From contig CALIJB010000005.1 of assembly GCA_938017675.1 (NCBI GenBank), positions 114,140 through 178,139 of the forward strand: a stretch of DNA of 64,000 bases. The letters run 5' to 3'. The DNA is from an uncultured Candidatus Saccharibacteria bacterium. GTDB lineage: Bacteria; Patescibacteriota; Saccharimonadia; Saccharimonadales; Saccharimonadaceae. The notes below the pieces were generated by a model. It saw nothing but the letters and a program-made list of their open reading frames with translations. It was not told where the DNA came from and ran no database searches. Below are positions 11,657 through 64,000 of the stretch, piece after piece. The position numbers and the translations under genes were made by a program. How positions within the stretch are numbered: position 1 is the first letter of the stretch; each line of letters opens with the position of its first letter.

Positions 11657-11689
11657 ACTATTAAACAAAAGAAAGGTTATAATAAAATT

Positions 11690-13389: not shown

Positions 13390-13459
13390 TTTTTAAGGCG
13401 TCTTTAATAGCTCCTAGTTATATTTTAATCAGTATTAATTAACAAAAGGAGATGAATAA

Positions 13460-13792
13460 ATGCCAACTAAAATTGAAGATGGTTTTGAAATGCCTTCTGG
13501 CGGTACGCCGTCAATACGGCCAGTAGCGCAATGCTCGTCTATGACGCCAACTATGATTTTGGCCGTCATAGCAATTGTGTTGTTCGCTGGCGGATTAGGT
13601 TTTGTTGGTGGTATGCAAGTCAATAAATCATCGCAAAGCAATGCAATGAATGGTGCGCCTGGAGGCAATTCACTAGTGCCGCAGCAGGCTGGTTCTAGCA
13701 CAAATAACGCTACCGCACCTCAGGAGTCGCCTAGCTCATCAAACAAGAATCAACAAGCAGGTCCACCAAATACCAATATGAATAACAGCTAG
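13460..13792 (+). CDS. Membrane-anchored low-complexity (S/N/Q/P-rich) protein
   Basis: An AAGGAG RBS precedes it. It has a single TM helix (MILAVIAIVLFAGGLGFVGG) and a polar tail. No family was recognised. Confidence 0.45.
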   Translation: MPTKIEDGFEMPSGGTPSIRPVAQCSSMTPTMILAVIAIVLFAGGLGFVGGMQVNKSSQSNAMNGAPGGNSLVPQQAGSSTNNATAPQESPSSSNKNQQAGPPNTNMNNS

Positions 13793-14538
13793 TAGCTGAT
13801 TCCAGCAGATTTCATTGCTGGCTGGATGACGAACTTTTCAAAATTATCAGCATTAGCCCAGACATAACTAGCATTAGTATCGGTGTTTGTGCCGCTAACT
13901 AGCTTATCGTTAAGGACTTTTTGGCTGCCGACATCTTTGCCGTTAATGTACATAGCCGGTGTGCCGCCAACGCTGTCCTTTTTGCCGAGCGCCATGTCGT
14001 AATCAATTTTTTTACGGATATTTGGATTTTCGAGATCAGCCTTGAATTTTTCTACATTCAAGCCCTTGATGTCGGAGGCTAACTTCACAAAGTTTTCGGT
14101 ACGAGTTGACCCAGATAGCTCTACCCAGCTAGCTCGATTTTCGAAAAGCGAGTTGTGCATTTCCCAGTACTTACCTTGTAGTCCAGCTGATTCGGCAGCA
14201 GCCGCCGCGGCCAGCGCGTTCGGGTGAGCGCTAGTTAGCGGATAATTGCGGAAGATAAACCCGATCTTGTCTTTGTACTTTTCAATGACTTTTTTGGTGA
14301 CTGGGTAAGATGAATTGCAGCCTGGACATTGAAAATCGGCATATTCAACTAGTAGTACTTTGCTGTTAGCGTTACCATAAACATGTTCGCTAATATCGCC
14401 GCTTTCGCTTGATGCTGGCTGCGCCTTCGTAGTATCGACACTTGAAACATCAATTTGATTGCGCTGCTGTAAAAAAATCAAGCCGCCAATCAATCCTACG
14501 CACATCGCCGCAAAAATAATCCATGCCTTTTTGGTCAT
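13789..14538 (-). CDS. DsbA-family thiol:disulfide oxidoreductase, membrane-anchored
   Basis: An N-terminal TM helix is followed by the thioredoxin-fold active site FQCPGC. Confidence 0.85.
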   Translation of the reverse strand: MTKKAWIIFAAMCVGLIGGLIFLQQRNQIDVSSVDTTKAQPASSESGDISEHVYGNANSKVLLVEYADFQCPGCNSSYPVTKKVIEKYKDKIGFIFRNYPLTSAHPNALAAAAAAESAGLQGKYWEMHNSLFENRASWVELSGSTRTENFVKLASDIKGLNVEKFKADLENPNIRKKIDYDMALGKKDSVGGTPAMYINGKDVGSQKVLNDKLVSGTNTDTNASYVWANADNFEKFVIQPAMKSAGISY

Positions 14539-14617
14539 ATTTCCTCCGCTTATTACTAGAGGCTATTATACTGCTTATGAGCTCGCCAATCAAGCGGGCT
14601 TGCGGTACAATATATGT

Positions 14618-15637
14618 ATGCGGTTATTCTTAGCGATTTTGTTTGTGATGATTACTTTAGCGTTGATAGCGGTGACGTCAATTTCGCCGCGCCGAACAAA
14701 GCTATCAATGTACGAGTTAGAACGCCGCCGGTGTAAGGGTGATACTGCAGCGGCTGACGAATTACGGCGAATACTACTGCTTGATGATATTGTATCGCTG
14801 CGTAAGGCAACCGAAGCTCTACTACTGGTTCTGGCGGTATTATCGGCAGTATCGGCGTTTGGTTTTTTTATCGGTGTGGCCATTAGCGTGATGACGTCTT
14901 TAGTATATAGTAGAATTGCTCATTTTGACTGGTTGGTGCAGATGGTTGATGGATATTACCGGCGGATAGAGCCGAGATTGCTGACTTTCGTCGAGCGGCA
15001 TCCGCGCTTGGGGCAAGTTTTGCGCAGTGTTAACGTGCAGAATGAGCCGAATATTCTTAGCTCGCGGGAAGAACTTGAGCATTTGATACGCGAATCATCG
15101 GGAATATTGTCGCTTGAAGAGAAAAAATTAATCAATAATGCCCTGCATTTTCATGAAAAAACCGTCGAAGAGGTAATGACGCCGCGCGGCGTAATGAATA
15201 CAGTAGCTAAGGAAGATGTGATTGGGCCGTTGCTGCTTGATGAACTGCATAAGACTGGTCATAGCCGCTTCCCGGTGACTGACGGTGATATTGACCATAT
15301 TGTTGGTATTCTGCATATTCGTAGCTTACTGACGCTTGATAACGGTAAGAAAACTAGCCGCGTTGAAACGGCGATGGACAAGAAGATTTACTTTATCAAC
15401 CAAAACCAGAAGCTGGAGCGCGCCTTGTCGGCCTTTATCAAGACGCGGCATCACATGTTTATTGTTGTTAACGATTATCGCGAGACAGCGGGTATCTTAA
15501 CGCTCGAGGATACATTAGAGGCGTTGCTTGGCCGTAAAATCCTCGATGAATTTGATGTAGTTGACGATTTGCGCGTGCTGGCGGCGCGTAATCCGAACAA
15601 AAATAATAAGAGTCCATCGGCTACTGACGTTAAATAA
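14618..15637 (+). CDS. CNNM/DUF21 transmembrane domain plus CBS-pair protein (hemolysin/CorC-like, no CorC C-terminal domain)
   Basis: TM helices are followed by a CBS pair (VEEVMTPRGVM, GILHIRSLL, GILTLEDTLEALLG). The start is moved to the ATG at 14618, 6 nt after TACAAT. The track start at 14459 would overlap dsbA. Confidence 0.8.
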   Translation: MRLFLAILFVMITLALIAVTSISPRRTKLSMYELERRRCKGDTAAADELRRILLLDDIVSLRKATEALLLVLAVLSAVSAFGFFIGVAISVMTSLVYSRIAHFDWLVQMVDGYYRRIEPRLLTFVERHPRLGQVLRSVNVQNEPNILSSREELEHLIRESSGILSLEEKKLINNALHFHEKTVEEVMTPRGVMNTVAKEDVIGPLLLDELHKTGHSRFPVTDGDIDHIVGILHIRSLLTLDNGKKTSRVETAMDKKIYFINQNQKLERALSAFIKTRHHMFIVVNDYRETAGILTLEDTLEALLGRKILDEFDVVDDLRVLAARNPNKNNKSPSATDVK

Positions 15638-15647
15638 GTCAGTAATT

Positions 15648-15674
15648 TTAGCACTCTTGCACTTCGAGTGCTAA
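15648..15674. promoter_or_regulatory. CIRCE element (HrcA operator), TTAGCACTC-N9-GAGTGCTAA
   Basis: This is a perfect match to the canonical CIRCE inverted repeat. It lies immediately upstream of a TATACT -10 box (15680..15685) and dnaJ. Confidence 0.9.
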
Positions 15675-15693
15675 CGCGCTATACTATAGCAAT

Positions 15694-16809
15694 ATGGCAA
15701 AGCGTGACTATTATGAAGTACTAGGTATCAGCAAAAACGCCTCTGAAGACGAAGTCAAGAAAGCTTTTCGTAAGCTGGCTGTCAAGTATCACCCCGACAA
15801 GGAAGGTGGCAGCGAAGAGAAATTCAAAGAGATTAACGAAGCTTACGAAGTTCTCAAAGACAAGCAAAAACGCCAACGTTACGACCAGTTCGGTCATGCT
15901 GGCGTAGGCGGTTCTGGCGGCGGTGCTGGTTACAGCGGTAATCCTTTTGAAGGTTTTGGCGGTTTCGGCCAAGGCCAGAATATCAATTTCGATTTTGGCG
16001 AAGGCTTGGGCGATATTTTCAGTCAGTTTTTTGGCGGGCCGTCCGGGCAATCGCGCCGCAATAGCCGGCCGCGTGGGCGCGACGTTGAAACGCGTGTTAC
16101 TTTGACTTTCGAAGAAGCGGTGTTTGGTAAAGATGTCGAGATTGCGTTAATGATTAATGACGAGTGTGAGCATTGTCACGGTACGACCGTCGAGCCGGGT
16201 TTCGAGATGAAAACTTGTCCAGATTGCCAAGGCGCTGGCCAACGTGTCCGCACAATGAACACTATGTTTGGACCGATTCAACAAGCGGTAGTTTGCGAAA
16301 CTTGCAAAGGCCGCGGTAAAATACCCGAGAAAGAATGCACAGTTTGTCATGGCTCTGGCGTGCAACGCCGCGAGCAGAAAATCACTGTCAAAATTCCAGC
16401 AGGTATTGATGACGGTTCGACGATTCGTTTGCGCGAGCGCGGTGAAGCGATTGCCGACGGCGACCGTGGTGATTTATACATCAATATTCGCGTTAAAGCG
16501 CATAAGAAATTTACCCGCGAGGGCGATTTGATTCTTAGCCAAGAACATATTGGTATGGTTGATGCGGCACTCGGTACTGAAATTGACGTTGAGACAGTCG
16601 ACGGCATAATTACCATGAAGGTACCGGCCGGTACGCAGTCGGGTACTGATTTTAAATTGTCTGGCCATGGTGTCCCGTACCCACGCAGCGAACGGCGCGG
16701 CGCCCATATCGTTAGCATTATTGTCGATACACCGACTAAGCTATCTAAGAAGCAGCGTGAACTGTTGGAGCAATTCGAAGCCTCTAAAAAACGCGGTATT
16801 TTCTCGTGA
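15694..16809 (+). CDS. dnaJ: Molecular chaperone DnaJ
   Basis: It has a J domain with HPD (KYHPDK), a G/F-rich linker, four CxxCxGxG zinc-finger repeats and a C-terminal domain. Confidence 0.97.
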
Positions 16810-16862
16810 GACACAGGCTTTTAACTTGTCATCGTACATAGACGACATGATAAAATAAAAGC

Positions 16863-17351
16863 ATGACTTTTACTATCGTTCTAGCAATAGTCTTTGGCGT
16901 GCTGTTTTTGTTGGCATATATGACGCGCCGGCGATTCGGCGTATTGACGCTAGCGCTAGCAGCTGGTTCAATCTTGGCTGATTTGTGGAGTAGCGAGGCA
17001 ACGCCATACGTTGCTAATCTCGGCATTGTCATCATCCGTCCGCCGTTAGTAGATGTAGTAGCGGTGATATTAACTCTAGCACCTTCACTGATATTATTAT
17101 TCAGCGGGCCGGCGGCTAGTAACAAATTTCAGCGAATTGGCGGGTCAGTGATATTTGCAGTGTTAGCTGTGGTATTAATGTTTGAGCCGCTAGAAAATGC
17201 GCTAGTGGTTGATGAGTTCGGCAAGCAAATCGTCAGCCGTATTAATGCGTCTTATGCCATTATCGTGACTGTGTGCCTGGTGCTGTCGATAATTGATGTG
17301 TTGCAAACTCATGTGCGGCGCAACGAATCAAAAAAGAAGAGTAAAGAATAA
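16863..17351 (+). CDS. Multi-pass membrane protein, unknown function
   Basis: It has four to five hydrophobic helices and a lysine-rich tail. Confidence 0.5.
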   Translation: MTFTIVLAIVFGVLFLLAYMTRRRFGVLTLALAAGSILADLWSSEATPYVANLGIVIIRPPLVDVVAVILTLAPSLILLFSGPAASNKFQRIGGSVIFAVLAVVLMFEPLENALVVDEFGKQIVSRINASYAIIVTVCLVLSIIDVLQTHVRRNESKKKSKE

Positions 17352-17366
17352 AGACAGTTAAAAAAT

Positions 17367-17402
17367 AAAAGACCTTCACGCTGAGGAGGTCTTCTTGTTT
17401 TT
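17367..17402. terminator. Hairpin with flanking A/T runs between convergent genes (bidirectional terminator candidate)
   Basis: The sequence AAAAGACCT..AGGTCTTCTTGTTTTT sits between the 16863 CDS and the minus-strand tRNA-Lys. Confidence 0.5.
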
Positions 17403-17406
17403 GAAA

Positions 17407-17483
17407 TGGAGGGCCCAGTGAGGCTTGAACTCACGACACCCTGCTTAAAAGGCAGGTGCTCTAACCAACTGAGCTATGGGCCC
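17407..17483 (-). tRNA. tRNA-Lys (UUU), CCA encoded
   Basis: The reverse complement GGGCCCATAGCTCAGTTGGTTAGAGCACCTGCCTTTTAAGCAGGGTGTCGTGAGTTCAAGCCTCACTGGGCCCTCCA folds as a cloverleaf with anticodon loop CUUUUAA. Confidence 0.9.
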
Positions 17484-17542
17484 GAGTGAATCTTACTATA
17501 CAGTTTGCGGTGAGTCGTGTCAAGCTATGCTACTATCGAAAT

Positions 17543-18982
17543 ATGAGATGGTTGGGCGAGCGGCTTCATCCAATGTGGCATATTGCCGCTTTATGCTACG
17601 GGCTAGTTAGCGGCGTGGTATTGGCGCAATGGTGGAACGGGGCTAGCTGGTGGTTAATTATTGCGTCCATCCCGCTGATTAGTTTAGCTTTTTGGCAGCG
17701 GCGGCTGATTTTGTTAATTTTAACGCTAGGCGCGGGGCTGTTGATCGGACTGGCTCGCGGCTCTAGCAATCAAGCGCAGTTACAGTTATATAAACCGTTG
17801 TATGGTCAGTCGGTGCGATTAACTGGAATAGTGCGGGATGACGCAGATAACGTAGCTGGTAGTACTAGACTGCAAATAACTTATATCAAAATGGACGAGA
17901 CATCTTTACCTGGTCAAATTTGGTTGTCGCTGCGCGGTAATCCAGCAATTAAACGTGGTGATGGACTTGCTTTGCGCGGTGTATTGAAGCCGGGTTTTGG
18001 CAATTTCGCGGCAGTATTAGCAAGGGCGAAGCTTGACAGTGTCAAGCGAACAGCTGGTGGCGATCCAGCACTAGAGCTGCGCGATACTTTTGCTGATGGC
18101 GTACATAAAGCGGTTGATGATCCAGGAGCTAGCCTAGGGATTGGCTTTTTATTAGGCAAGAAAAGTATGCTGCCAGATGATCTACTAGAGGCTTTGAAGA
18201 TTGCTGGTCTGACGCATATCATTGTAGCGAGCGGCTACAATTTAACAATTCTGGTACGTTTGGCGCGGCGGCTATTCGCAAAAATATCAAAATATTTAGC
18301 GACACTAGTTAGCTGTAGTTTGGTGCTGGGTTTTATCGCTATGACTGGCGCTAGCCCGAGCATGGTGCGCGCCGGGCTTGTTGCCGGATTAAGTTTATTA
18401 GCATGGTATGTTGGTCGAAAATTTCATCCAGTTGTTTTACTGGGGCTAGTATCGGCAATAACGGTATTGTGTAATCCGAGTTATGCTTGGGGAGACATGG
18501 GTTGGATGCTAAGTTTTGCAGCGTTTGCTGGCGTAATTATTGTGGCGCCAGTGTTGACGGCTTATTTCTTCTCGACTGATAAAGTCTCAGCTATCATTCA
18601 AATTTTGTTAGAAACGTTAGCGGCACAGCTGGTAACTGCACCGATTATTATGGCAGCCTTTGGGCAGTTGAGCGTGGTTTCGTTGTTGGCGAATATCCTG
18701 GTTGGTCCGTTTATACCGTTGGCGATGCTGCTAACATCAATAGGTGGCGTTAGCGGATTGATTGTTCCAGCGATAGCGCACATCATTGGCTGGCCAGCGC
18801 AGATGATGCTTGATGCGATGATTGCAGTAGTGAATTGGTGCGCCGAGCAATCTTGGGCTGCAGTTGAACTGCAAGTACCGTGGTGGATAGCGGCGCTATG
18901 GTACGGTTTGATAATTGCGGCAGTGTGGTTCATGAAATGGCGTAGCGGCTATCGACTGCGCGACGCTTCAATAGTGACATAA
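17543..18982 (+). CDS. comEC: ComEC/Rec2-family DNA internalisation channel (no beta-lactamase-like domain)
   Basis: It is a multi-TM protein with the competence-domain motif LTHIIVASGYNLTILV. The start is moved to the ATG at 17543, 6 nt after TACTAT. The track start abuts the tRNA. Confidence 0.8.
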   Translation: MRWLGERLHPMWHIAALCYGLVSGVVLAQWWNGASWWLIIASIPLISLAFWQRRLILLILTLGAGLLIGLARGSSNQAQLQLYKPLYGQSVRLTGIVRDDADNVAGSTRLQITYIKMDETSLPGQIWLSLRGNPAIKRGDGLALRGVLKPGFGNFAAVLARAKLDSVKRTAGGDPALELRDTFADGVHKAVDDPGASLGIGFLLGKKSMLPDDLLEALKIAGLTHIIVASGYNLTILVRLARRLFAKISKYLATLVSCSLVLGFIAMTGASPSMVRAGLVAGLSLLAWYVGRKFHPVVLLGLVSAITVLCNPSYAWGDMGWMLSFAAFAGVIIVAPVLTAYFFSTDKVSAIIQILLETLAAQLVTAPIIMAAFGQLSVVSLLANILVGPFIPLAMLLTSIGGVSGLIVPAIAHIIGWPAQMMLDAMIAVVNWCAEQSWAAVELQVPWWIAALWYGLIIAAVWFMKWRSGYRLRDASIVT

Positions 18983-45893: not shown

Positions 45894-48800
45894 ATGAAAA
45901 TACACAGGAAAAATATCAAATATAAATATCGCCGTATTGGCGTTGGAATAACCGTATTCATTGCGGCATTAAGTTTGGTGCTGGTGAATTTGCCGCGAGC
46001 TCAGGCGTCGCAGCTTAACAAAAAGTACTCTTTTATTAAAACCAATTACACCGTCCCAACGAGTAATGTCGCGTGGGTAGCGCCGAATGGCAACGACACC
46101 TCAGGTAATGGTTCCGAGGGTTCGCCGTACGCTACATTCAAGAAAGCTCTCAGCTCTATTAGTAATGGCGGCACGGTAGTCGCGAAGTCGGGTATTTATC
46201 GTGAACCGCATTTTTTCATCTCTGACGATAATGTGACTATTCAAGCGGCGCCGGGGGCAGAAGTTTGGCTAAAGGGCAGCGATGTCGTAAATTCATGGAC
46301 TAGTGAAAATGGCATATGGAAAACAACTGGGAATTATCACAACTTCTGTCATGTTTGTACCACAAATGCGAATCCAAGCGTTGAAGGTGTCGCGGCCTAC
46401 CCAGAACAGGTTTTCATTAACGATGAGCCGCTAAAGCAGGTTAAAACTAAAGCAGAGGTAACGCCTGGTAGTAATACTTTTTATGTCGAAGACAATACTC
46501 CTACTACGCTCAAAACCCCTAACAATAATGCAGACGGCTATAATATTGGCCAGCAAGATGCGATATCTTATTATATTGGCAAGAATCCAGCTAGCGGTGT
46601 AACCGAGATATCAGAGCGGGCGCGAGCTTTCACTAGTACTGGCAAAAACGTTTCCGTAAAGGGCATTAACGTTGCTCAGTATTCGCCTGTTCAGGTTTGG
46701 GGTTTTAAGGATCCTTACGATCCTGCCGCTGACAGAGGAGTTTATTCGGGTCCAACCGCAGTAAGTATCAACGGAACTGGCTCGTTGGTTCAAGATATGA
46801 TTGTCACCCAAAGTGCAAGCCAAGGCCTGTTCTTTAACAAAGCAGAATCGTCGACGGCGCGCGGCGTAAAGGCGATAGATAATGGCGGCTCGGGAGTTGG
46901 GGCTAACAAATCTCACAACACAGTATTTACTAACGGTGAATTATATGGCAACAACGCGGAAGGTTTCTTGACGATTGGCTGCGGAGCTTATTGTACGATG
47001 GCCGATATCAAAGTTACGCATACGCGAAATTTCACATTCCGCAATAATATTGTTGATTATTCTCGCGACGCTAAAGCGTATTCTACTGCTGCCAACGCCA
47101 ATAGCGAAGGTATGATTGGCCTTTGGTGTGACGAGGGTTGTGTAGAAACGAAAATCGTTGGCAACTTCTTTACTAATTCTCCGCTTGCTATCATGTACGA
47201 GGTCTCTGGTAATGGTATAATTGCCTCTAATATAATCGAGAGCTCCGGTACGGGTATTCGCGTAGCTGGCAGCGATGATGTTAAGGTGTATAACAACACC
47301 ATATCTCGTACTTATCGGCCAATATACATATTTGAAGACAGTCGTATTGACGGATGTAATTATTGGAAAGGCGGGTCCTGTGTAGCTAACGAAAGCTGGT
47401 CGCAGGGACTGGGTCTAGATTGGAATACTTCGGGCGTTGAATTGTATAACAACATTATATCTTCGCGGCCGTTAGCTCGAACAGAGGATCTTTCTGGCGG
47501 TAATTATCAACGCGCGTATTCACTGCGTGTTGAAGGATCTCAGAATGATCAAAATAGACCGTATGTCGATGCCAACGATATGCTCAAAGGGTTTGATTAT
47601 AATGTATATTACCGTAACGAATCAGACGATATAAATTTGTCGGTGTGGGATTTCAAACAGATTCCTTCAAAGACTGATACAGTTATAAGCAGAGCTTCTG
47701 ATATCGCGAATAATCCAAAATTGTCGAACTCGATTGACGGCCGCGATGCGCATTCGCTTGATACTTTTGGCTCGCGAGCAAATAATCCGTATTTCGTGAA
47801 AGAAGCAGCAAATAATAACGATTACAAAAAGAGCAATTACAATCTCAAACCAGGTAGCCCAGCTATCAACAAAGGTAAACCGTTATCTAGCGACGTAGCG
47901 CAGGCGATTGACCCAACAGGCAAAACTGTTAAAGCTGGCGTGCCGGTAAATGCTGGTGCTTTGGTTAATGTGCTGATGGATGCGACGGGCGGGCAGACTC
48001 CGCCGACACCTCCAGTAACTGTCAATATTCCTGATGCTGGCCTCAAGGCGGCTATCAATAAAACGCTTGACAGCAATCGTCCGAGCACCCAGGATATCAC
48101 AGTGGACGAGCTAGCTCAGTTGACGCAACTTACCGTAGACGGCGGTGTTAAAGTTAAAAATTTAACAGGCCTCGAGAAGGCAGCTAATTTACAAGAGCTG
48201 AAGATTGACAATAACGAAGTTGCTGATTTGGCGCCTTTGTCATCGTTAGCAAAATTGACCAAGTTGACAATGACAAATAACAAAGTCGCGTCGATCGAAC
48301 CGTTGGCGTATTTGGCTAACTTAAGCGTACTTTTAGCGTCTGGCAATCCGATTGCTTCGACCAAGCCGCTAGCTAATCTGACGCATTTGACACAAGTAAG
48401 TGTAGATAGTAAATCGACAGCGTTTGATATTTCTGATTTTGCCAAGAGTGCGGGCACCTTGACGACATTGCAGTTGTCTGGTGCTGATAATGGTACGCCG
48501 CAGTTAGTGCATAGCGAAGTTCTAAAGCAACTTACTAAAGTAACGACTCTCCAAGTATCGTCAACCTCGTTAACCGATAACGATCTGAATAGTATTGGCG
48601 TGATGACGCAATTAACGTCGCTGCAAGCAGACCGCAGTAATATTAGCGATATGTCGTTTGCGGGCCGCTTAACTAAATTAACTAAGCTTGACGTTTCTAA
48701 TCAGCGTGTCCGTATGAGTACGAGTACAACGCCGTTTGCATCGCCGCTCAAAGATGTATCGGGTACGGCTGTTGCTATAACCAACAGCGCTGATTTGGCT

Positions 48801-51026
48801 AATGATGGGGCTGGTCGTGTCAAAATTGTCTCGCCAATTTATGATAATAATGCTCATGAGTTGTCGGCAACTTGGACCAAGAATGTTACAGTTGGCACTG
48901 CTACCGCCCAATTCAACGGTCAGCTAACAGTGTCTGCAACGCTGCCAAAAGCTGATAAAGCTCAGCTCCAAGCGCAAATAGATCGCGCGAATAACTCTGC
49001 AGATTATATCAAAGCAGATGTGACGGTAGCCAGTGCGCTGTCAGCTGCGAAAAACGTTGTTGCTAAACAAAATCCGACACCTGCCGAAATTAGCCAAGCG
49101 ACAAACGACCTCAAGCAAGCACTTGATGCCGCAATAGCTAAAGAAACGGCAGCTCAAGCGGCCGCACGGACAGCGGTTGATAAGGCAAAAAACAGTAAGT
49201 CGCCTGCTGATATTCGCGCTGCAGAGGCACTTTTAGCGCACGTTCAGGACACAGACAAGAAATCAGCGATGCAAGATGAGCTCAACGCCGTCAAACAGGA
49301 AATTACCGATGCGCGGACAGCCTTATCGAAATTGATTGACAAGGCGAAGAACACGCCGACGGATGGTCTAGCGGCCGAGACTGTTGCTGCTTTGAATACC
49401 GCAATTGCTGCAGCTAAAGCAGTCAATAACGACCAAGAGTCAACTTTGGCGCAGCTCAATGAAGCCAAAACCAAATTGCAATCAGCTCTTGATAACCTCA
49501 AAACCGATAAGACAGCGCTAGCCAAAGCTATAGCGGATGCTGACCAAGAGCCAGTTTATATCAAGAACGATTCAGCGGTTAAAACTGCTCTGCAACATGC
49601 TAAGAATGTTTATGCTGCGGCTAATCCAACGCCAGCAGAAGTTAACACAGCTGTCAATAATTTGAAGTCGGCAATTAATGCTGCTAAAAAGAAAGAAACT
49701 GATGCTCAAACAGCTGCTGCCAATGCGGTTGCGGCAGCAGAAGGCGCTAAAACGGCGCAGTCGATAACGGCGGCTCAAACTCTCGTTGACGCTGTCCAGG
49801 ACGCGTCGGTTAAGTCTGCTCTGCAGGCGCGTCTTGATGCTGTATCGCAGCAGCTTAGCAATGCTAAACAAACGCTTGCCACACTTATTACTAAAGCTGA
49901 GGCTGTCGATACGACTGGTATGAGTGCTGACACTGTCAATGCGCTAAAGGCTAAAATTAAGCAAGCTAAACAAGTCTACAATGATGCTTCAGTATCAGTA
50001 ATGCGACTGCAAGCGGCGGCGTCGGAGTTGCAAGCAGCTCTCGATGCCTTGCGGCCAGACAAGACTACTTTGCGCGACGTGATTGCTCGGGCGGAAGCGC
50101 AGCCAGCGTATATCCGAAACGATCCTGCAGTCAAATCTGCTTTGCAGCATGCCAAGAACGTTGAGGCCGCTGCTAGCTCGACGCCAGCTGATATTAGTTC
50201 CGCGATACAGCAGCTCAATTCGGCAGTTACTGCCGCTCAGAAGAAAGAAGCTGACGTCCAGGCGGCCGCCCAGGCAGCTGTTGCCGATGCTGAAAGCCAG
50301 AAAACTGCTCAGTCTATAGCGCATGCGCGAACACTAGTCGATAAAGTACAGGATCAAGCCGTTAAGACAAACCTTCAGGCGCGCCTAGATGCGATTGTTG
50401 TCCAAACCTTTGTCAACAAGCAAACAATTCGCCAAGCAAACAATACCAATATTACGCTGTCTACCTCAGGAGATAAATGTTACAACATCAAAAACGCTGC
50501 TGCGGTAGGGCAGCCGAAAAATATTCCGACTGGCTATCAGATGCAGGGCTCGGCCAAGTTTACGATCAACTGTGACGGACATGCGCAGCCAGCGGTTGGG
50601 TATACTACCAAAATTACTCTCGAATTATCGCGTATCTACAAAGTTAATCGCCTAAAAGTAATCAAGTACAGTATTAATGGCGCTAATGCTACCGATATTA
50701 CCGAGAAAGTCACACTCAAAACATCAGTCGATGGCAAACGCACTATTGTTGAATACTCAATTACCGATGGCGGCTTTGGCGACATGGATAAAACTGCTAA
50801 CGGTGTTATCGACGATCCGGTTATAATTTATGAGCGGTCAGAGAATACTACGCCAGCTAATGGTGGCAATCAACCTGGAGCTCCAGCAAAGAATAGCAAG
50901 GCTACTGCTAACGGCGGACGCTTATCTGAAACTGGCGATAGCCTATACGGTTATATTATCGGCGCTGGCGTACTGGTGCTAGGCGGCGCTGCCGGTGTAT
51001 ACGCTATCATTCGTCGTCGCCAATAA
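45894..51026 (+). CDS. Giant cell-surface protein: beta-helix region, internalin-like LRRs, helical repeats, C-terminal beta domain, LSETG sorting signal
   Basis: It has an N-terminal TM/signal segment. Parallel beta-helix-like repeats are present (NNIVDYS, NNTISRT, NNIISS). About ten 22-aa LRRs follow (LxxLxxLxLxxNxIxDLxPL). There are 2.6 copies of a 184-aa Ala/Lys/Gln-rich repeat. The C-terminus has a DGGFGDMDKTANGVIDDP motif, then LSETG, a hydrophobic helix and RRRQ. Confidence 0.8.
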   Translation: MKIHRKNIKYKYRRIGVGITVFIAALSLVLVNLPRAQASQLNKKYSFIKTNYTVPTSNVAWVAPNGNDTSGNGSEGSPYATFKKALSSISNGGTVVAKSGIYREPHFFISDDNVTIQAAPGAEVWLKGSDVVNSWTSENGIWKTTGNYHNFCHVCTTNANPSVEGVAAYPEQVFINDEPLKQVKTKAEVTPGSNTFYVEDNTPTTLKTPNNNADGYNIGQQDAISYYIGKNPASGVTEISERARAFTSTGKNVSVKGINVAQYSPVQVWGFKDPYDPAADRGVYSGPTAVSINGTGSLVQDMIVTQSASQGLFFNKAESSTARGVKAIDNGGSGVGANKSHNTVFTNGELYGNNAEGFLTIGCGAYCTMADIKVTHTRNFTFRNNIVDYSRDAKAYSTAANANSEGMIGLWCDEGCVETKIVGNFFTNSPLAIMYEVSGNGIIASNIIESSGTGIRVAGSDDVKVYNNTISRTYRPIYIFEDSRIDGCNYWKGGSCVANESWSQGLGLDWNTSGVELYNNIISSRPLARTEDLSGGNYQRAYSLRVEGSQNDQNRPYVDANDMLKGFDYNVYYRNESDDINLSVWDFKQIPSKTDTVISRASDIANNPKLSNSIDGRDAHSLDTFGSRANNPYFVKEAANNNDYKKSNYNLKPGSPAINKGKPLSSDVAQAIDPTGKTVKAGVPVNAGALVNVLMDATGGQTPPTPPVTVNIPDAGLKAAINKTLDSNRPSTQDITVDELAQLTQLTVDGGVKVKNLTGLEKAANLQELKIDNNEVADLAPLSSLAKLTKLTMTNNKVASIEPLAYLANLSVLLASGNPIASTKPLANLTHLTQVSVDSKSTAFDISDFAKSAGTLTTLQLSGADNGTPQLVHSEVLKQLTKVTTLQVSSTSLTDNDLNSIGVMTQLTSLQADRSNISDMSFAGRLTKLTKLDVSNQRVRMSTSTTPFASPLKDVSGTAVAITNSADLANDGAGRVKIVSPIYDNNAHELSATWTKNVTVGTATAQFNGQLTVSATLPKADKAQLQAQIDRANNSADYIKADVTVASALSAAKNVVAKQNPTPAEISQATNDLKQALDAAIAKETAAQAAARTAVDKAKNSKSPADIRAAEALLAHVQDTDKKSAMQDELNAVKQEITDARTALSKLIDKAKNTPTDGLAAETVAALNTAIAAAKAVNNDQESTLAQLNEAKTKLQSALDNLKTDKTALAKAIADADQEPVYIKNDSAVKTALQHAKNVYAAANPTPAEVNTAVNNLKSAINAAKKKETDAQTAAANAVAAAEGAKTAQSITAAQTLVDAVQDASVKSALQARLDAVSQQLSNAKQTLATLITKAEAVDTTGMSADTVNALKAKIKQAKQVYNDASVSVMRLQAAASELQAALDALRPDKTTLRDVIARAEAQPAYIRNDPAVKSALQHAKNVEAAASSTPADISSAIQQLNSAVTAAQKKEADVQAAAQAAVADAESQKTAQSIAHARTLVDKVQDQAVKTNLQARLDAIVVQTFVNKQTIRQANNTNITLSTSGDKCYNIKNAAAVGQPKNIPTGYQMQGSAKFTINCDGHAQPAVGYTTKITLELSRIYKVNRLKVIKYSINGANATDITEKVTLKTSVDGKRTIVEYSITDGGFGDMDKTANGVIDDPVIIYERSENTTPANGGNQPGAPAKNSKATANGGRLSETGDSLYGYIIGAGVLVLGGAAGVYAIIRRRQ
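48954..50405 (+). repeat. Tandem 552-nt coding repeat, 2.6 copies
   Basis: Repeat units start at 48954, 49506 and 50058 (DKAQLQAQI / DKTALAKAI / DKTTLRDVI), so the period is exactly 552 nt. Confidence 0.85.
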
Positions 51027-57222: not shown

Positions 57223-59082
57223 ATGCCTAAACCTCGTAAACAAAAGGTGAGTAATAAAGTTCGGCTCGGTTTATTCTGGGCAATTATCGTTTTGATTGGA
57301 CTGTCGCTATATGCGGCATTTATGCCGGCTAAGCCGCTCCAGGAAGTACCAATCGCTCAGGTGATTCGAGACGCCAACGAAGGCAAAGTAGCCAAGATCG
57401 AAGGCCAAGGCGGCGACCTTCAGGTGACCATGAAGGGCGAGAATAAGCCATCTAAGCGGACATACTTAGGCGGCGGGGTTTCGTCGCTGCTGAAAGACAA
57501 TATACTTAACGAAAAAGGCCGTGCAGTTGTTTCGGATAGCGCGCCAGTTGATAATTCTTTGATGCTGACTTTGATGACGGTGGTTTTGCCAGTGCTGCTG
57601 ATAGGTGCGTTGTTCGTCTTCATGATGCGGCAGGCCCAAGGCCAGAATAGCCAGGCGATGAGTTTTGGTAAAAGTAAGGCTAGGCTATACGGCCTTGATA
57701 AAGAGCGGGTGGTGTTTGACGATATCGCTGGCAATGATAATGCTAAACAGGATTTACAAGAGGTCGTTGACTTTCTCAAGCATCCGAAAAAATATCAAAG
57801 TCTCGGTGCCAAAATCCCGAAGGGCGTGCTGCTAGTTGGCGATCCAGGTACTGGCAAGACGATGCTAGCGCGAGCAGTAGCTGGCGAGGCGGATGTACCT
57901 TTCTTCTCTATTTCTGGTTCAGAGTTTGTTGAAATGTTTGTCGGTGTTGGCGCCAGCCGCGTGCGCGACCTTTTCCAGAAGGCCAAGAAAAACGCGCCGG
58001 CGATTGTTTTTATCGATGAGATTGACGCCGTCGGGCGCAAACGCGGCAGCGGTATGGGCGGCGGTCATGACGAGCGCGAGCAGACACTGAACCAAATTTT
58101 GGTAGAGATGGACGGTTTTGAAGCGGACACCAATGTGATTGTAATCGCGGCGACCAACCGGGCTGACGTGCTTGATCCGGCACTGCTCAGGCCAGGCCGC
58201 TTTGACCGGCACGTGACGATTAGTTTGCCAGAGCGCAAAGATCGCGAAGCTATTTTGAAAGTTCATTTCAAAAATAAGCCGACTGACGACACGGTTGATC
58301 TCGATAAATTAGCAGCTAAGACGGCTGGCTCCAGCGGTGCTGATTTGGCGAATATTGCCAACGAGGCGGCAATCATTGCAGCGCGGCGCAACTCCAAGAA
58401 AGTGTCGAATGACGACCTAACCGAAGCTTTTGAAAAGGTGGCTATCGGCCCGGAGCGTAAAGCTAAAGTAATGAACGACCACGAAAAGGAACTAACTGCT
58501 TATCACGAAGCTGGCCATGCCATTGTTGGTCATGTCTTGCCAGATAGCGATCCAGTACACAAAATCACTATCATTCCGCGCGGCGGTACGGGTGGTGTGA
58601 CGTGGTTCTTGCCGCCAGAAGATAGAAGTTACACTAATGTTTACGAGTTCAAGGATATTCTAGCGCGGGCGCTGGGCGGCCGGATTGCCGAGAAGCTGAT
58701 TTACGGCAATGATGGTATTACTACTGGCGCTGGCAGTGATTTGCGCCACGCCGCTAAAGTTGCTCGCAATATGATAATTGAACAAGGCATGGGCTCGAAA
58801 CTGCGCGACCAAGTCTTCCACGATGACAATGGCGGCATGGTCTTTGACAAAATTACCCACGACCGGCCATATTCAGAGGCGACAGCACAAGAGATCGACA
58901 ACGAGGTCGAGGCGCTGATTAAGGAGGCGTCAACTCGCGCCGAAATAATACTCAGCAAGAATCGGGCGGTGCTTGAAAAGCTCAAGGATGCTTTGCTCAA
59001 AAACGAAACTCTCGAAGAAGAAGACGCCGCTAAATATATGAAGGATGCGGTACTGCCAAAGGAAGTGAAATTACACGCATAG
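57223..59082 (+). CDS. ftsH: ATP-dependent zinc metalloprotease FtsH
   Basis: It has two TM helices, AAA+ Walker A GDPGTGKT, Walker B IVFIDEID, the SRH, and the zinc motif HEAGHA. Confidence 0.98.
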
Positions 59083-59085
59083 ACT

Positions 59086-60723
59086 ATGGCGGGGCGAGGA
59101 AGTCGAGTACGGTCGGTTGTTGCCAAAGCTAATAGCAAATTGTCAGTACAGTGGGCGGCAATTCTGCTGTCTGGATCGACGATGCTGTCAAGCCTGCTGG
59201 GGATTTACCGCGATCGTTTAATTAATGGCATGTACCTGGACACCTATAAAGTGGGTGCTGATGCTTACGTGGCGGCGTTTACTGTGCCGGATTTTATGTA
59301 TTTTCTGCTAGTATCGGGCGCTTTGAGTGTATCGTTTATTCCAGTGTTTAATCAGCGTTTGGCTAGCGGTAATAAGCGATCGGCGTGGGAGCTGAGTTCA
59401 AGCTTGTTGAATCTCTTTGCGGTATTGACGTTAATCACTAGCGTGCTGATTATCATCTTTGCCGACCCGCTAGTGCGCTATGTTGTTGGCCCGGGCTTTG
59501 GCGAGCAAGGGCATGCTTTGGCGGTGAGTATGATGCGTATAATTGCCGTCAATCCGTTTTTGTTCGCGATTGCGACGGTAGTGTCGAGTATGCAGCAAGC
59601 AATCGGCCGGTTTACTTTTTTGGCACTAGCACCAACCATCTATAATCTAGGTATCGTTGTCGGTGCCAAATATTTTACTAACGGCATTAATATTTTTGGC
59701 TGGCAGATTTTTGAGGGCGGCATTATGGGCGTGGCTCTTGGCGTAGTATTAGGGGCAATTTTGCAGCTGGTGGTTAGTTCAATTGGTCTGGTTGGCGTAA
59801 ACTTTGACTATCGCCCGGTGATTTCTTGGCGCAACAAAGGTTTTCGTCAAGTCTTGAAACTTCTACCACCGCGCTCAATTGATCAAGGAATTGATTATTT
59901 TAATGGAATTGTTGAAATTAATTTAGCGTCACGAATGGGCGACGGAATTATGCGTGTTTATCAGCAGGCGTCGAGCTTGAGTTTGATGCCAGTAAATCTA
60001 GTCGGCGTAGCTATTAGCAATGCGGCTTTTCCGCGGATGACTGAACGGCTAGCAGAAGGTCGAGTTGATTTATTTAAGAAAGAACTGCGCTCGGTTTTTC
60101 GTTGGATTGTTTGGCTGGCATTGCCAATTGCTGTGATTACATTTTTTGCGCGTGGCTACGTGGTGGCTTTCATCAAAAACGGCGGCCAGCCGGCGATTGC
60201 TAGTGTTCTCGGTGCGTTAGTGATATCGATATTCTTCCGGACGCTTTATCACATCATGGCGCGAACGTTCTACGCGCAGCAAGACACGCGAACACCTCTG
60301 TATATTTCGATAGCGACGATATCGTTAAATATTGTGTTGGCAATCATATTCACGCAGCTGTTCGGCTGGGGAGTGTTTGGTTTGGCTTGGGCGCAATCAA
60401 TTGTTTCGGTGGTAGAGATTGCGATTTTGCTAACTATATTGCACGTACGTACACCAGGTATTTTTAATCGCAAGACACTGCGCAGTATTATTACTATGAT
60501 GATTGCCAGTGCAATTATGGGTGTGGTGACTTATTTTGTAGTACAGATGTTGCAGTTGCAGTCGCGCGATATGAATTTTATGGCAGTTTTCCCGAAGTTT
60601 ACCGTTATCGTGGTAGTGAGTTTTGCGGTATATATAGCATTAAGTAAGGTATTTAAGCTTGAAGAGGCGGATCCGATTGTTGCGAAATTACGACAGCTGC
60701 TATTCGGCAGAGTGAGGCGTTAG
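59086..60723 (+). CDS. murJ: Lipid II flippase MurJ (MviN family)
   Basis: It is a 14-TM MOP-family protein with an RDRLINGMY-type N-terminal motif. The length is 545 aa. Confidence 0.88.
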
Positions 60724-60724
60724 A

Positions 60725-61711
60725 GTGGAGCGTATACGTAATTTTTGCATCATTGCTCATATCGATCACGGCAAATCGACGCTGGCGGATAGGATGATGG
60801 AGATGACGGGGACGGTGGAGAAGCGCGAGATGAAATCGCAACTGCTTGATAGTATGGACTTGGAGCGTGAAAAAGGGATTACTATTAAGTTGGCGCCGGT
60901 GCGAATGAAGTACGAGCCGACTGCTGCTGGTCTTTTCTCTGAAGGCTTTGCCTTTCTGGCAAAGCGAGGCCAAGAGCGTAAGCTAGATCAGTTGGCGGCC
61001 GAGCGGCCTGAAGAGAAAAGCGCCAGCGAGGTCGGCACTAACAGGCCGTTGCGGTCGGTTACTTACGATCTCAACCTTATCGATACGCCCGGCCATGTTG
61101 ATTTTAGCTATGAGGTGTCGCGTAGTTTACAGGCCTGCGAGGGCGCGGTATTGGTGGTTGACGCCAGCCAAGGCATTCAGGCGCAGACACTGGCGAATGT
61201 GTACCTGGCGATGGAGCAGGATCTGACGATTATCCCGGTACTCAACAAGGTCGATTTGCCAGCCGCTGATGTGCCACGGGTGTCCAAGCAGGTGATCAAT
61301 TTGCTGGGCTGTGATGAAAGCGAAATTATTCATATTTCTGCTAAAACGGGGCAGAACGTCGATCAAGTCTTAGAGGCGATCGTTGAGCGAATTCCAGCAC
61401 CAACTGGTCAGCCAGACGACCCGACGCGGGCGTTGATTTTTGATAGTTATTATGATGATTACCGCGGGGTGATTTTGTATGTCAGGGTGGTTGACGGGCA
61501 GATCAAAAAAGGCGAAGCGATTCATATGATGGCGACTGGCGCGAACGGCTTGGCGCTAGAAGTTGGCCATCTCAGTCCCGGCATGATTGCCGATCCGTCG
61601 CTTGATACCGGCGAGATTGGCTACATCGTCACCAACTTGAAAACTACGCGTGAAGCGCGGGTGGGTGATACGGTGACGCTGAAAAAGTACTTCACGAAAG
61701 AGACTAAATAG
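60725..61711 (+). pseudogene. lepA: Elongation factor 4 (LepA), 5' part only (G domain plus domain II), with an in-frame insertion of about 42 aa
   Basis: [27 protein letters not shown] and NKVDLP motifs are present. The ORF ends 9 codons after VGDTVTL, whereas full-length LepA (about 600 aa) continues with domains III-V and the C-terminal domain. Confidence 0.75.
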
Positions 61712-61721
61712 GAGGCTAGAA

Positions 61722-62330
61722 GTGAGCAAAGGCATCATCTACGTCATGACCACTGCAGTGTCAGGCCTCATCAAAATCGGTAAGACACAAACCAAGCAGT
61801 ACCCAGAGCGGATGCGCTTTCTCGAGGCGAATGGCTACTACAATGTGGTTGGTTTGAAGCGGTTGTTTGCGATCGAGGTGGCTGACTATTCCGAAAAGGA
61901 AACGCTATTGCACGAAATATTCGCCAAGCATCGAGTTGGTAGTAGTGAGCTTTTTGCGCTTGATTATGATTTGGTACAGCAGCTGTTGCTGTCGTTTGAG
62001 GGCGAGGTGGTCTTTCCGGAACAGAAAAATAAAGAAGCGGAATTTGACAAAATCACCAAAGCCAAAAACAGTAATCAAAAGTTTAGCTTTTACCGGAAAG
62101 GTCTCAAAAATGGCGATGAGGTTGTCTTTCTCAAAGATAAAACAATTGTAGCAAAAATTGTTGGCGAGCGCGAAGTTGAATATGGCGGGCAGAGGTGGTT
62201 TTTGTCGCCGCTGGTGCGAAAAATATTTGAGGACAGGAATCAAGTTAATGATAGCGGCGCGTACCAGGGTGCAGCCTACTTTTGTTTTGATGGCAAGAAA
62301 TTGAAGGACTTGCCGGATGTAGAACTGTAG
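61722..62330 (+). CDS. T5orf172 / GIY-YIG-like nuclease domain protein with C-terminal DUF4357-like region
   Basis: GIIYVMTT...LIKIGKTQ...R...E..LHEIFAKHRV..SELFAL matches the T5orf172 pattern. The GTG start follows a TAGGAGG that overlaps the lepA stop. Confidence 0.65.
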   Translation: MSKGIIYVMTTAVSGLIKIGKTQTKQYPERMRFLEANGYYNVVGLKRLFAIEVADYSEKETLLHEIFAKHRVGSSELFALDYDLVQQLLLSFEGEVVFPEQKNKEAEFDKITKAKNSNQKFSFYRKGLKNGDEVVFLKDKTIVAKIVGEREVEYGGQRWFLSPLVRKIFEDRNQVNDSGAYQGAAYFCFDGKKLKDLPDVEL

Positions 62331-62358
62331 GAGCGTGTGCTATTATTAAAATGTACAA

Positions 62359-62997
62359 ATGAAAACAAAAATACTCAAATTAATCTTAGCTTTAGTGTGT
62401 TTCAGTGTAAGCGCTTATACTTCGTATGATTATTTGCTGCATGAAGTGCCAGTCTATCTGAAAAGTAAAAATTTGGTTGAAGCAAGAACTCAGAAAACCC
62501 GTTTTCTAATACCAAAGCAGTGGCAAAGGATTGATGTAAAAAACGGTAAAACTGAAGGTTACGGCGATAAACTGGGCAAGGATAATAAGTCAATTAGCGG
62601 TGTTGGCGTGACTCAGGATTCGAAGCGGTTGGTGTTACCGGCTGCGCCTGATGAAGCTTATGAATTAGTGCGCAAAATAGCTTATGATAGCAAAGAGTTG
62701 CGCGAAGACGCGAAAAGATTCTTTACTATTAAGGGATTGGAAAATTGTCAAGCGACTGTCGATATCAAGGACGATACTTTGGAACAAAATGGTTTAGTTG
62801 GTATTGTCAGAATTACATCAAGTTGCGGTTCTCGACCTGAAAATACTAAAATGGTAACACGCTTAGTTGTCGGCCGCGAAGACGGATGTCTTCGTTACAT
62901 ATCGGTATTCTCTTACAATGAATATTGGAAGCAAAATAGCAAAGTGTTTGAAGAAATATTAAATAGCGTATCGTATATAGATACGCAAAACGCATGA
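62359..62997 (+). CDS. Membrane-anchored or secreted protein, unknown function
   Basis: It has an N-terminal hydrophobic helix (ILKLILALVCFSVSAY), lies in AT-rich DNA, and has a mixed alpha/beta-looking body. Confidence 0.45.
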   Translation: MKTKILKLILALVCFSVSAYTSYDYLLHEVPVYLKSKNLVEARTQKTRFLIPKQWQRIDVKNGKTEGYGDKLGKDNKSISGVGVTQDSKRLVLPAAPDEAYELVRKIAYDSKELREDAKRFFTIKGLENCQATVDIKDDTLEQNGLVGIVRITSSCGSRPENTKMVTRLVVGREDGCLRYISVFSYNEYWKQNSKVFEEILNSVSYIDTQNA

Positions 62998-63028
62998 GGC
63001 GGAAATTGGACCGTCTAACGTTAACAGA

Positions 63029-63658
63029 ATGAATAACTTCAAAAATTTTACAGAGAAAATTAGCTGCCGGGTGATTCCGACAACACGCGATCGCCGCGTG
63101 TGGTTGGATGAAAAAGTTGTCGACGATGATTTGTATTGTGTTTTTATGAATGGCCGATCGTACGAACTTGGCGAGGAATATGATGACTTTTTGTATGTCA
63201 CTGCTGACAACTTTGCCGAACTGGCAGATGTTATCCTCCGCGAGTTGTATGCGCGCGGATTTTCGTCGTCAGATTACAAATTAATCAATGAAAATCGCGT
63301 TCATCTGGACTATAGTTTTATAAGTGATGACACGCTTTGGACTGCCTGGCGCAATGTCGATGCGATAGTTACGGGCGATATTACCGACGAGAAGGACTAT
63401 CGTCGCGACAAAACTAAACGCGGTCGGTGGATGAGCTACTCTGAATTGGTTCAGACTATTGGCAAGAATCAAGCCCATAAGATTTTTGAGCAGTTATACA
63501 GTTATAAATTAGTTTGTAATTCTCTGCTGAATCAGTATGGATACTATAAATCGATTTACTGTAAAATCCCCACTACCTTTGCAATAGTTTTAAAGGTTAT
63601 CTTGTTTTTCTGCAGAGGTGGTGGCTATTATAGATCCCTTGCAATGTCCAATGTCTAA
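63029..63658 (+). CDS. Hypothetical protein
   Basis: It is a long ORF in AT-rich DNA with no recognisable motif. Confidence 0.4.
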   Translation: MNNFKNFTEKISCRVIPTTRDRRVWLDEKVVDDDLYCVFMNGRSYELGEEYDDFLYVTADNFAELADVILRELYARGFSSSDYKLINENRVHLDYSFISDDTLWTAWRNVDAIVTGDITDEKDYRRDKTKRGRWMSYSELVQTIGKNQAHKIFEQLYSYKLVCNSLLNQYGYYKSIYCKIPTTFAIVLKVILFFCRGGGYYRSLAMSNV

Positions 63659-63717
63659 TGCTACAATATAAATCATAATCATAAATAGAGATAAACAGTC
63701 GCAAAATACGAGGAATT

Positions 63718-64000
63718 ATGACAACAGGCAACTCTGAACACGTAGCTAAAGGCTCTCTGGATCCCGAAGACCCGACAAAGTATTCTGATAACCCTACAGA
63801 GAACTCAGGAAATCATGAAGAGACTCTTCTTTCTCGTGTCGAGAGTTCTCTTGCTAATCAAGCTGTACGAGATAGTGAAAGAGACGTCCAGCAGACACCA
63901 GAAGATAAAGAAGACACGCATACTGTCGCTGAATTGCTTGAGATTCTGGAAAGAGGAGGAGACTCTAGCTATCAGTTGACGAGCCATGCCGCCCACCAAC
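63718..64000 (+). CDS. Partial acidic protein (continues beyond window)
   Basis: The ATG follows an AGGA RBS and the frame is open to the window end (MTTGNSEHVAKGSLDPEDPTKYSD...). It is absent from the ORF track because no stop codon lies within the window. Confidence 0.4.
   Translation, partial: MTTGNSEHVAKGSLDPEDPTKYSDNPTENSGNHEETLLSRVESSLANQAVRDSERDVQQTPEDKEDTHTVAELLEILERGGDSSYQLTSHAAHQ

Follow-up and report, generated by a model that had tools for sequence, protein, structure and literature searches.

An apparently clade-wide split of the lepA gene, with variable cargo between its halves, in human-oral Saccharibacteria

LepA, also known as EF4, is one of the most highly conserved proteins of bacteria and serves as a standard marker in phylogenetics. 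We analysed a 64,000 nt stretch of DNA from an uncultured Candidatus Saccharibacteria bacterium (assembly GCA_938017675.1, contig CALIJB010000005.1, positions 114,140 to 178,139 of the forward strand), referred to here as the window, at the end of which only the first part of a lepA gene is present. A preliminary description, made from the sequence alone, had noted a 328-aa open reading frame (ORF) carrying the complete G domain and domain II of LepA, followed at once by a T5orf172/GIY-YIG-like gene and by three further ORFs of unknown function. Three explanations were offered: disruption of lepA by an insertion, a genes-in-pieces arrangement created by a homing-endonuclease-like gene, and an accessory module, for example of defence genes. 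We refer to the 328-aa ORF as lepA-N.

The domain content of lepA-N bears out the description. The protein matches Pfam GTP_EFTU (5.8e-55) and GTP_EFTU_D2, and its best match in the Protein Data Bank (PDB) is the 600-aa LepA structure 2ywe of Aquifex (4.6e-100, residues 5-285 aligned). The NCBIfam lepA model TIGR01393 is matched up to profile position 282 of 595, with a score of 423 bits that falls under the equivalog cut-off of 533.9. The NKVD motif is readable, and the G domain and domain II of a translational GTPase are both present. EFG_C and LepA_C were not found in the window lepA-N ORF, which does not include the domains III and V and the C-terminal domain (CTD) of a single-chain LepA. 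Within the 64 kb window, a tblastn search with full-length Saccharibacteria LepA detected no LepA-like sequence outside 60725-61699, as the description had stated for the region from 61712 on. Compared with 2ywe, lepA-N carries approximately 48 extra residues at query positions 65-112. This G-domain insert differs in length between related contigs, from 0 aa (L019, L100, L104 and L106) to 33 aa (L020), 49 aa (the window) and 78 aa (L012), and sequence diversity at the locus peaks here (pi 0.15-0.21). An additional 15-aa insert was observed ahead of domain II in L020 (10001-10975).

lepA-N terminates nine codons past VGDTVTL, with the residues KKYFTKETK. The position of the stop was described correctly, whereas the codon is TAG (61709-61711) and not TAA. 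This stop overlaps the Shine-Dalgarno sequence that precedes T5orf172, whose GTG at 61722 lies 10 nt past it, as reported before. The lower G+C content past lepA was also recognized correctly: values of 0.51-0.56 in lepA give way to 0.38-0.42 beyond approximately 61950, and the final 2 kb of the window, at 0.409, has the lowest 2 kb value in the window. The same lepA-N/T5orf172 junction is found in more than 20 independent assemblies, which differ in sample and assembler, and in NCBI genomes. An assembly chimera at the junction was ruled out by this recurrence, and the earlier concern about a misassembly near 61700 was not borne out.

The preliminary description had recommended a search for a 3' piece of lepA, and such a piece was found in L012 and in at least 17 other related contigs. 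The contigs compared were recovered by exact-protein look-up and come from human oral metagenomes and NCBI assemblies. L012, which is 96% identical to the window, shows the entire locus (Table 1), and beyond it the genes ParB-CE, NT5C, gmk, hrcA and grpE. The second piece, lepA-C, encodes domains III and V and the LepA C-terminal domain, is approximately 319 aa in length, and has its own start on the same strand as lepA-N. In the related contigs long enough to show it, lepA-C lies 0.4-8 kb downstream of lepA-N. Both halves are present, in order and on one strand, at all 17 of the 17 loci with enough flanking sequence, and among the lineages seen none had a single half.

Table 1. Coordinates of features at the split lepA locus and its surroundings
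Sequence	Feature	Coordinates	Strand	Details
Window	lepA-N (LepA/EF4 N-terminal half: G domain and domain II)	60725..61711	+	GTG start; 328 aa; G1, G3 and G4 motifs intact
Window	Low-complexity Ala/Ser/Pro/Glu-rich G-domain insert	60917..61060	+	After VRMKYE; lepA-N residues ~65-112
Window	Retained domain II-III linker tail and TAG stop; break point of the split	61679..61711	+	Conserved K[K/R]YF tail
Window	TAGGAGG: overlap of the lepA-N stop with the Shine-Dalgarno sequence ahead of T5orf172	61709..61715	+	GTG start 6 nt past GGAGG
Window	T5orf172/GIY-YIG-like nuclease family protein	61722..62330	+	202 aa; Pfam T5orf172, MUG113; PADLOC PDC-S57
Window	Orphan 212-aa protein	62359..62997	+	N-terminal hydrophobic helix; restricted to the window species group
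Window	209-aa ORF	63029..63658	+	Gene callers: start 63071, 195 aa; small lineage-restricted family, typically ~160 aa
Window	Start of 1480-aa acidic protein	63718..64000	+	Full gene in L012 at 10648-15090
Window	1710-aa ORF	45894-51026	+	Right-handed beta-helix, leucine-rich-repeat and FIVAR domains
L012	lepA-N	7568-8641		357 aa
L012	T5orf172	8652-9260		
L012	212-aa gene	9289-9927		
L012	195-aa gene	10001-10588		
L012	1480-aa repeat protein	10648-15090		
L012	Short lepA-C relic	15369-15491		Codons 1 to ~71
L012	Nitroreductase-like gene	15568-16563		
L012	lepA-C ORF	16674-17633		EFG_C and LepA_C
L005	lepA-C relic	11893-11961		Codons 1 to ~71
L004	Resolvase and Recombinase (serine recombinase) pieces	1218-2275		~7 kb upstream of lepA-N

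Gene callers give lepA-C a length of 345 aa. Because the 26 additional upstream codons are interrupted by stop codons in L005, the start is placed at the Met of MS[N/H]IT[V/I]QPLPGYKEVKP, which gives a predicted protein of approximately 319 aa. Among the nearest lepA-C clusters (86-99% identity), which include Nanosynbacter HMT-348 and TM7-074, 119 of 120 are free-standing proteins of 304-345 aa. L023, the closest unsplit outgroup, reads TTKRNFTKRQLPGYK at the position of the lepA-N tail, and its unsplit domain II-III junction reads GDTVTTKRNFTKRQLPGYK. Comparison of the split halves with this linker places the break between domains II and III, with the ancestral linker retained and no residues lost.

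Among the Saccharibacteria (TM7), the oral taxa TM7 346 and 349, as well as Candidatus Nanosynbacter genomes, encode proteins of this locus. The break site is identical in L020, L019, L100-L103 (HMT-348 type), L104-L105 and L106-L108, all of which are without T5orf172 in the gap between the halves. In L020, lepA-N ends in KKYFE directly before its stop codon and lepA-C starts MTAITVQPLPGY, with a gap of 6.2 kb that holds a membrane protein, two NUDIX genes, DUF218, peptidase S51 and an 845-aa protein. In L019, lepA-N ends in GRYFN and is followed by SemiSWEET-like and MazG/dUTPase-like genes and a homolog of the window 209-aa ORF; this short contig stops before lepA-C. L100-L103 have the lepA-N end KKYFD and the lepA-C start MINRINIQPLPGY, and their gap contains an AlwI fragment, a C5 methylase, GmrSD_N, HEPN and other genes. 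The gap is occupied by one 179-aa gene in L104-L105 (lepA-N end KKYFSGKIDT, lepA-C start MNISIEPLPGY), and by one 136-aa gene, with a TAATG stop/start overlap, in L106-L108 (lepA-N end KRYFE, lepA-C start MHRVIVEPLPGY). Single-chain lepA is found in the more distant Saccharibacteria L021-L029. In addition, the 1864 bp contig L099/P0107 (sample SRR25288710) carries an unsplit lepA with the linker KRAHATTPLSGYK and the junction near 520-600.

The preliminary description had named as a point against itself a LepA ending at the same residue in close relatives, together with the same downstream genes and no shift in composition. The first of these was found: the LepA ORF of close relatives ends at the same residue, which makes the break a property of the whole lineage, as opposed to an isolated lesion. 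On these comparisons, the split appears to be a clade-wide trait of human-oral Nanosynbacter-type Saccharibacteria and not damage to one genome.

The gene directly behind lepA-N belongs to the T5orf172 family, as had been proposed. Its 202-aa product scores 28.8 bits against T5orf172 (PF10544; cut-off 20, residues 4-89), matches PADLOC PDC-S57 models with values of 9.5e-59, 7.2e-35 and 9.4e-19, and matches a PHROG annotated as homing endonuclease (1.8e-6). The family comprises more than 2000 clusters of approximately 200 aa, with approximately 70% identity across Ignavibacteria, Nomurabacteria, Rickettsiales and Saccharimonadales; Y7, K18, E29, E65 and E76 are invariant, and G20, R30 and R32 nearly so. 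Phage genomes are nearly without the family, with two phage records at 24% identity. In two contexts from other phyla, the homolog stands directly after a type I restriction-modification (R-M) operon or beside a type III R-M system, and splits nothing. An AlphaFold2 (AF2) model of the protein (pLDDT 80) gave weak Foldseek matches of the N-terminal domain to the GIY-YIG nucleases Slx1/UPF0213 (E 0.16-0.7, probability 0.3-0.7), and the C-terminal domain weakly resembles the C-terminal DNA-binding domain of CcrM. A 304-aa member of the T5orf172/PDC-S57 family, P0122, has this C-terminal domain in tandem duplicate, which fits a modular nucleic-acid-binding unit. For PDC-S57, we found nothing relevant in the literature searched.

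A mobile homing endonuclease gene of this type could itself have split lepA, with the other cargo gathered behind it. The start of T5orf172 only 10 nt past the lepA-N stop, with its ribosome-binding site overlapping that stop, would fit such an origin, as would the matches to Pfam T5orf172 and to the homing-endonuclease PHROG (1.8e-6), the low synonymous diversity of the cassette on divergent lepA-N alleles (consistent with a recent spread within the species) and the precedents in phages (PMC3045599, PMC10448857). We consider this origin improbable. The break point is shared by at least five other lineages without T5orf172 in the gap, so that the split would be earlier or independent; the family is approximately 70% identical across unrelated phyla, where it adjoins type I/III R-M operons and splits nothing; phage matches are limited to two records at 24% identity; and the gene is under strong purifying selection, with a ratio of non-synonymous to synonymous diversity (pN/pS) of 0.015, which is atypical for a decaying fixed selfish endonuclease gene. 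T5orf172 as the cause of the split was rejected, because gap contents differ completely between lineages that share the break point. Two retained ORFs and intact homologs in relatives, as expected of genes in pieces, were found, but the responsible endonuclease is not present in every gap. The earlier suggestion of genes in pieces therefore stands for the pieces and falls for their cause, since lineages without T5orf172 share the break point. The best reading of the sequence data is that T5orf172 is a candidate functional defence-associated nuclease gene, acquired as cargo after the split.

The conservation of the two halves bears on whether the gene is still in use. Between split lineages, protein identity is 79-89% for lepA-N and 85-96% for lepA-C, compared with 76-79% for FtsH and 58-66% for MurJ in the same genome pairs. 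Synonymous sites are saturated and, where dS (synonymous divergence) could be estimated, the ratio of non-synonymous to synonymous divergence (dN/dS) was 0.03-0.15 for lepA-N and 0.02-0.06 for lepA-C. Both halves are thus under strong purifying selection, and their conservation exceeds that of FtsH and MurJ.

These values have to be set against the view that an insertion inactivated a dispensable factor and that the pieces are pseudogene remnants. Such a view could draw on the non-essentiality of lepA in model bacteria, on the reduced genomes of candidate phyla radiation (CPR) bacteria and on the score of the window ORF under the NCBIfam equivalog cut-off. It is at odds with 79-96% protein identity despite saturated synonymous sites, a dN/dS of at most 0.15, conservation above that of FtsH and MurJ, intact GTPase motifs, more than 119 distinct C-half clusters that are all open and full length, and the co-occurrence of the halves at every locus long enough to show them. 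We regard a dead lepA as highly improbable. Of the earlier proposal that the gene was disrupted by an insertion, the architecture stands and the destruction does not, given a lepA-C 0.4-8 kb downstream and the strong purifying selection on both halves.

The termini created by the split are also conserved. K[K/R]YF closes lepA-N across the split lineages (GRYFN in L019), and in nearly all 120 clusters the 4-12-residue head of lepA-C has a hydrophobic [I/V/M][I/T/V][V/I][Q/E] ahead of PLPGY, a position at which unsplit LepA proteins have polar linker residues. Rejoining of the halves into a single-chain LepA by a split intein, a large intron, trans-splicing or translational bypass is barely credible with such termini. 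Fractured genes that hold split inteins and have an endonuclease gene between their parts are known (PMC2677866), but tails of 9-10 residues on lepA-N and 4-12 on lepA-C leave no room for intein halves, no Hint/intein domain was found with Pfam, and the 26-residue upstream extension of lepA-C is broken by stops in L005. Furthermore, Rfam at the gathering threshold detected no group I/II intron in the window and four gaps, the only matches being tRNAs outside the gaps, and the gaps share no sequence relationship and contain genes that are expressed independently.

Across lineages, the gap is 0.4-8 kb in length and its gene content is unrelated between lineages. In the window species it measures 3.1-8.0 kb, with a constant left part (T5orf172, the 212-aa gene and the 209/156-aa family) and a mosaic right part that consists of a 425-aa gene or its fragments, 665-680-aa genes, DUF6994, the nitroreductase-like gene, or the 1480-aa repeat protein. 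The three ORFs behind T5orf172 have no curated family, in agreement with their earlier listing as being of unknown function. The 212-aa protein has three homolog clusters; its AF2 model (pLDDT 45) is unusable, and a match to PsbP is weak and tentative. Its gene was probably acquired recently, because its diversity is very low and it is restricted to the species group. The 209-aa ORF has no match in Pfam, NCBIfam, PHROGs or PADLOC, and an exhaustive HMMER search yielded 17 lineage-restricted representatives, none annotated; a homolog lies in the gap of another species (L019). The 1480-aa protein consists of many tandem repeats of 81-84 nt (27-28 aa) and has a weak match to PADLOC HEC-01B (6e-10) with no single stretch. 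Several assemblies end inside this gene, and its repeats probably explain the contig breaks here; in the window, no tandem repeats were found in 60000-64000.

Among the gap genes examined, none has an integrase, recombinase or transposase domain. Apart from the lepA-C relic described below, no direct or inverted repeats flank the gap, and there is no tRNA at the site. A classical mobile element or integrase-mediated island was considered and set aside, as integrase, transposase, terminal repeats and a tRNA target are all missing. A second variable spot was observed near the locus in L004, where Resolvase and Recombinase pieces replace the Pyr_redox and ATP-cone genes of its siblings. The suggestion of accessory or defence cargo holds for T5orf172 (PDC-S57, 9.5e-59) and for the R-M, GmrSD and HEPN genes in the gap of the sister lineage L100-L103, with the 212-aa and 209-aa genes still orphans.

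Two kinds of relic record how cargo may enter the gap. The first is a 91 nt direct repeat of the 5' end of lepA-C, 90% identical, that brackets the nitroreductase-like gene. The relic copy, upstream of this gene in L012 and L005, has its own TATAAT box and GTG start and is cut near codon 71; its right-hand breakpoint is identical in the two contigs, and the L005 copy is more decayed than the L012 copy. The second relic was found in L100 and L102 (11047-20442), which carry an insertion of approximately 8.8 kb downstream of lepA-C that the sibling genomes L101 and L103 do not have. The insertion includes GmrSD_N, NT5C, peptidase S51, DXS/transketolase, TrpRS and other genes, and ends in a chimeric 204-aa ORF in which a gmk fragment is fused to a second copy of the final 109 codons of lepA-C, also not present in L101 and L103. 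Because both patterns match the remnants expected of single-crossover or homology-facilitated illegitimate integration, these two independent relics appear to show the gain of cargo by recombination anchored in lepA-C.

Diversity within the window species, calculated from 14 sequences, fits a recombining locus. Mean synonymous diversity (pS) is 0.158 for FtsH and 0.178 for MurJ (pN/pS 0.013 for both), 0.34-0.39 for lepA-N (pN/pS 0.05), 0.10 for T5orf172 (pN/pS 0.015) and 0.03 for the 212-aa gene (pN/pS 0.24). The synonymous diversity of lepA-N (61061-61708) is approximately twice that of the adjacent FtsH/MurJ region (57223-60720), and the block of T5orf172 and the 212-aa gene is less diverse than its flanks, with the shift at approximately 61670-61690.

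We propose that lepA in these bacteria is probably a stably split locus whose halves reassemble into EF4, with the gap as a hotspot for cargo and T5orf172 as cargo that arrived after the split. The two polypeptides would dock non-covalently, on or off the ribosome, to form a functional EF4; we infer such docking because both the halves and the termini made by the split are conserved. Docking could be helped by the conserved termini that the split created: K[K/R]YF, which closes lepA-N, and the hydrophobic residues before PLPGY at the start of lepA-C. Expression of lepA-C could rely on an extended -10 promoter of its own, which would yield a leaderless or short-leader mRNA, or on translational coupling to the upstream gene. 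The window species and L020 carry a TGnTATAAT box 13 or 19 nt ahead of the lepA-C ATG, a distance that suggests a leaderless or very short-leader mRNA, and in L106 the lepA-C start overlaps the stop of the upstream gene (TAATG). A scan of the L012 island gave counts near, or approximately double, those of shuffled sequence (promoter-like, 20 versus 14.4; terminator-like, 18 versus 8.8) and, apart from the TGnTATAAT boxes, is not used as evidence. The conserved halves may also act as homology arms, by which DNA taken up from other strains or species would be added to or swapped in the gap. Exchange through homologous or homology-facilitated illegitimate recombination could thereby turn the gap into a hotspot of accessory and defence genes.

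Alternatively, the halves may have taken separate functions, for example as a stand-alone GTPase and a ribosome- or tRNA-binding protein, with the gap being an ordinary flexible intergenic region. The faster evolution and hypervariable insert of lepA-N (both halves being conserved), promoter-like signals of its own at lepA-C and up to 8 kb of unrelated genes between the halves are in keeping with this possibility. We nevertheless think it unlikely, as the halves are found together at 17 of 17 loci with order and strand unchanged, their split-made termini are conserved as expected if they dock, and no lineage was seen with one half only.

Several observations weigh against a reassembled EF4 encoded by a split gene with a cargo slot. 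lepA is non-essential in model bacteria, and its halves could have drifted to separate functions. A second, intact lepA may exist elsewhere in the genome, the tblastn search with full-length LepA having covered the 64 kb window. The promoters were called by match to a consensus, and no such match was found upstream of lepA-C in L100 or L104. A link to defence exists for some of the cargo only; the 212-aa and 209-aa genes are orphans. Finally, the C-part of the unsplit L099 lepA is 94% identical to that of the split L106, and its N-part, at 80%, has no clear grouping. L099 may represent a secondary re-fusion or a basal lineage in which lepA has always been intact and, because the placements of its two parts disagree, a single origin of the split is not proven. 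A more far-reaching version of the proposal, which we put forward tentatively and at somewhat less than even chances, is that of a two-subunit EF4, in which a subunit of G domain and domain II docks with one of domains III-V and CTD through complementary termini of recent evolution. The split would be kept because the halves serve as homology arms for the exchange of defence and accessory cassettes between strains and species of naturally transformable episymbionts, and the apparent re-fusion in L099 would be a sign of reversibility.

Elsewhere in the window, the 1710-aa ORF listed in Table 1 probably encodes a large protein of the surface or adhesin type in this episymbiont.

We know of no member of the EF-G/EF4 family that works as two separate chains, and no published split lepA/EF4 was found in the literature searched, a negative result limited to that literature. 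If the proposal is true, a selected, clade-wide split between domains II and III represents a natural experiment on the communication between the GTPase and tRNA-mimicking modules, and a ready-made system in which the two can be studied apart. The split explains why lepA is annotated as truncated, duplicated or 'hypothetical' in Saccharibacteria, and it can distort marker-gene estimates of completeness as well as phylogenies. As a defined locus that is easy to amplify, the gap gives a readout of cargo at strain level, defence genes among it, for a major group of episymbionts of the human mouth, and the conserved arms on either side point to a safe site for engineering by natural transformation.

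The locus shares features with several known systems. With regard to flexible genomic regions and defence islands, the gap resembles such hotspots in its conserved flanks, its content that varies between strains and species, its R-M, GmrSD and HEPN genes, its lower G+C and its mosaic modules. It differs in that the flanks are the halves of one gene, that integrase, transposase and tRNA are missing, and that gain is marked by duplicates of the flanking gene. The 202-aa protein of the window matches the PADLOC PDC-S57 models, and its homologs stand beside R-M systems, with defence only a candidate role for the family; unlike the other contexts, the window match sits inside a split housekeeping gene.

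Nanoarchaeum equitans is an episymbiont with a reduced genome and naturally split genes. Like that organism, the bacteria studied here are episymbionts with small genomes, in which a core protein that is elsewhere a single chain is divided into two polypeptides at a domain boundary. Unlike in N. equitans, the lepA halves are adjacent and ordered, with a gene-exchange hotspot between them.

Fractured genes that encode split inteins, with an intervening homing endonuclease gene, have been described (PMC2677866). The lepA halves are likewise half-genes on one strand with an inserted gene between them, but their termini of 9 and 4-12 residues, with no Hint domain, exclude protein splicing.

In Aeromonas phage Aeh1, nrdA is split by the endonuclease gene mobE, and the fragments reassemble via tails derived from the insertion (PMC3045599). 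As with Aeh1 nrdA, a conserved gene is retained here as two ORFs, interrupted at a permissive position by foreign DNA, and short new termini may mediate reassembly. In contrast to Aeh1 nrdA, lepA encodes a translational GTPase in a cellular genome, its split is apparently clade-wide, and its gap holds 0.4-8 kb of variable multi-gene cargo in which no endonuclease gene is consistently present.

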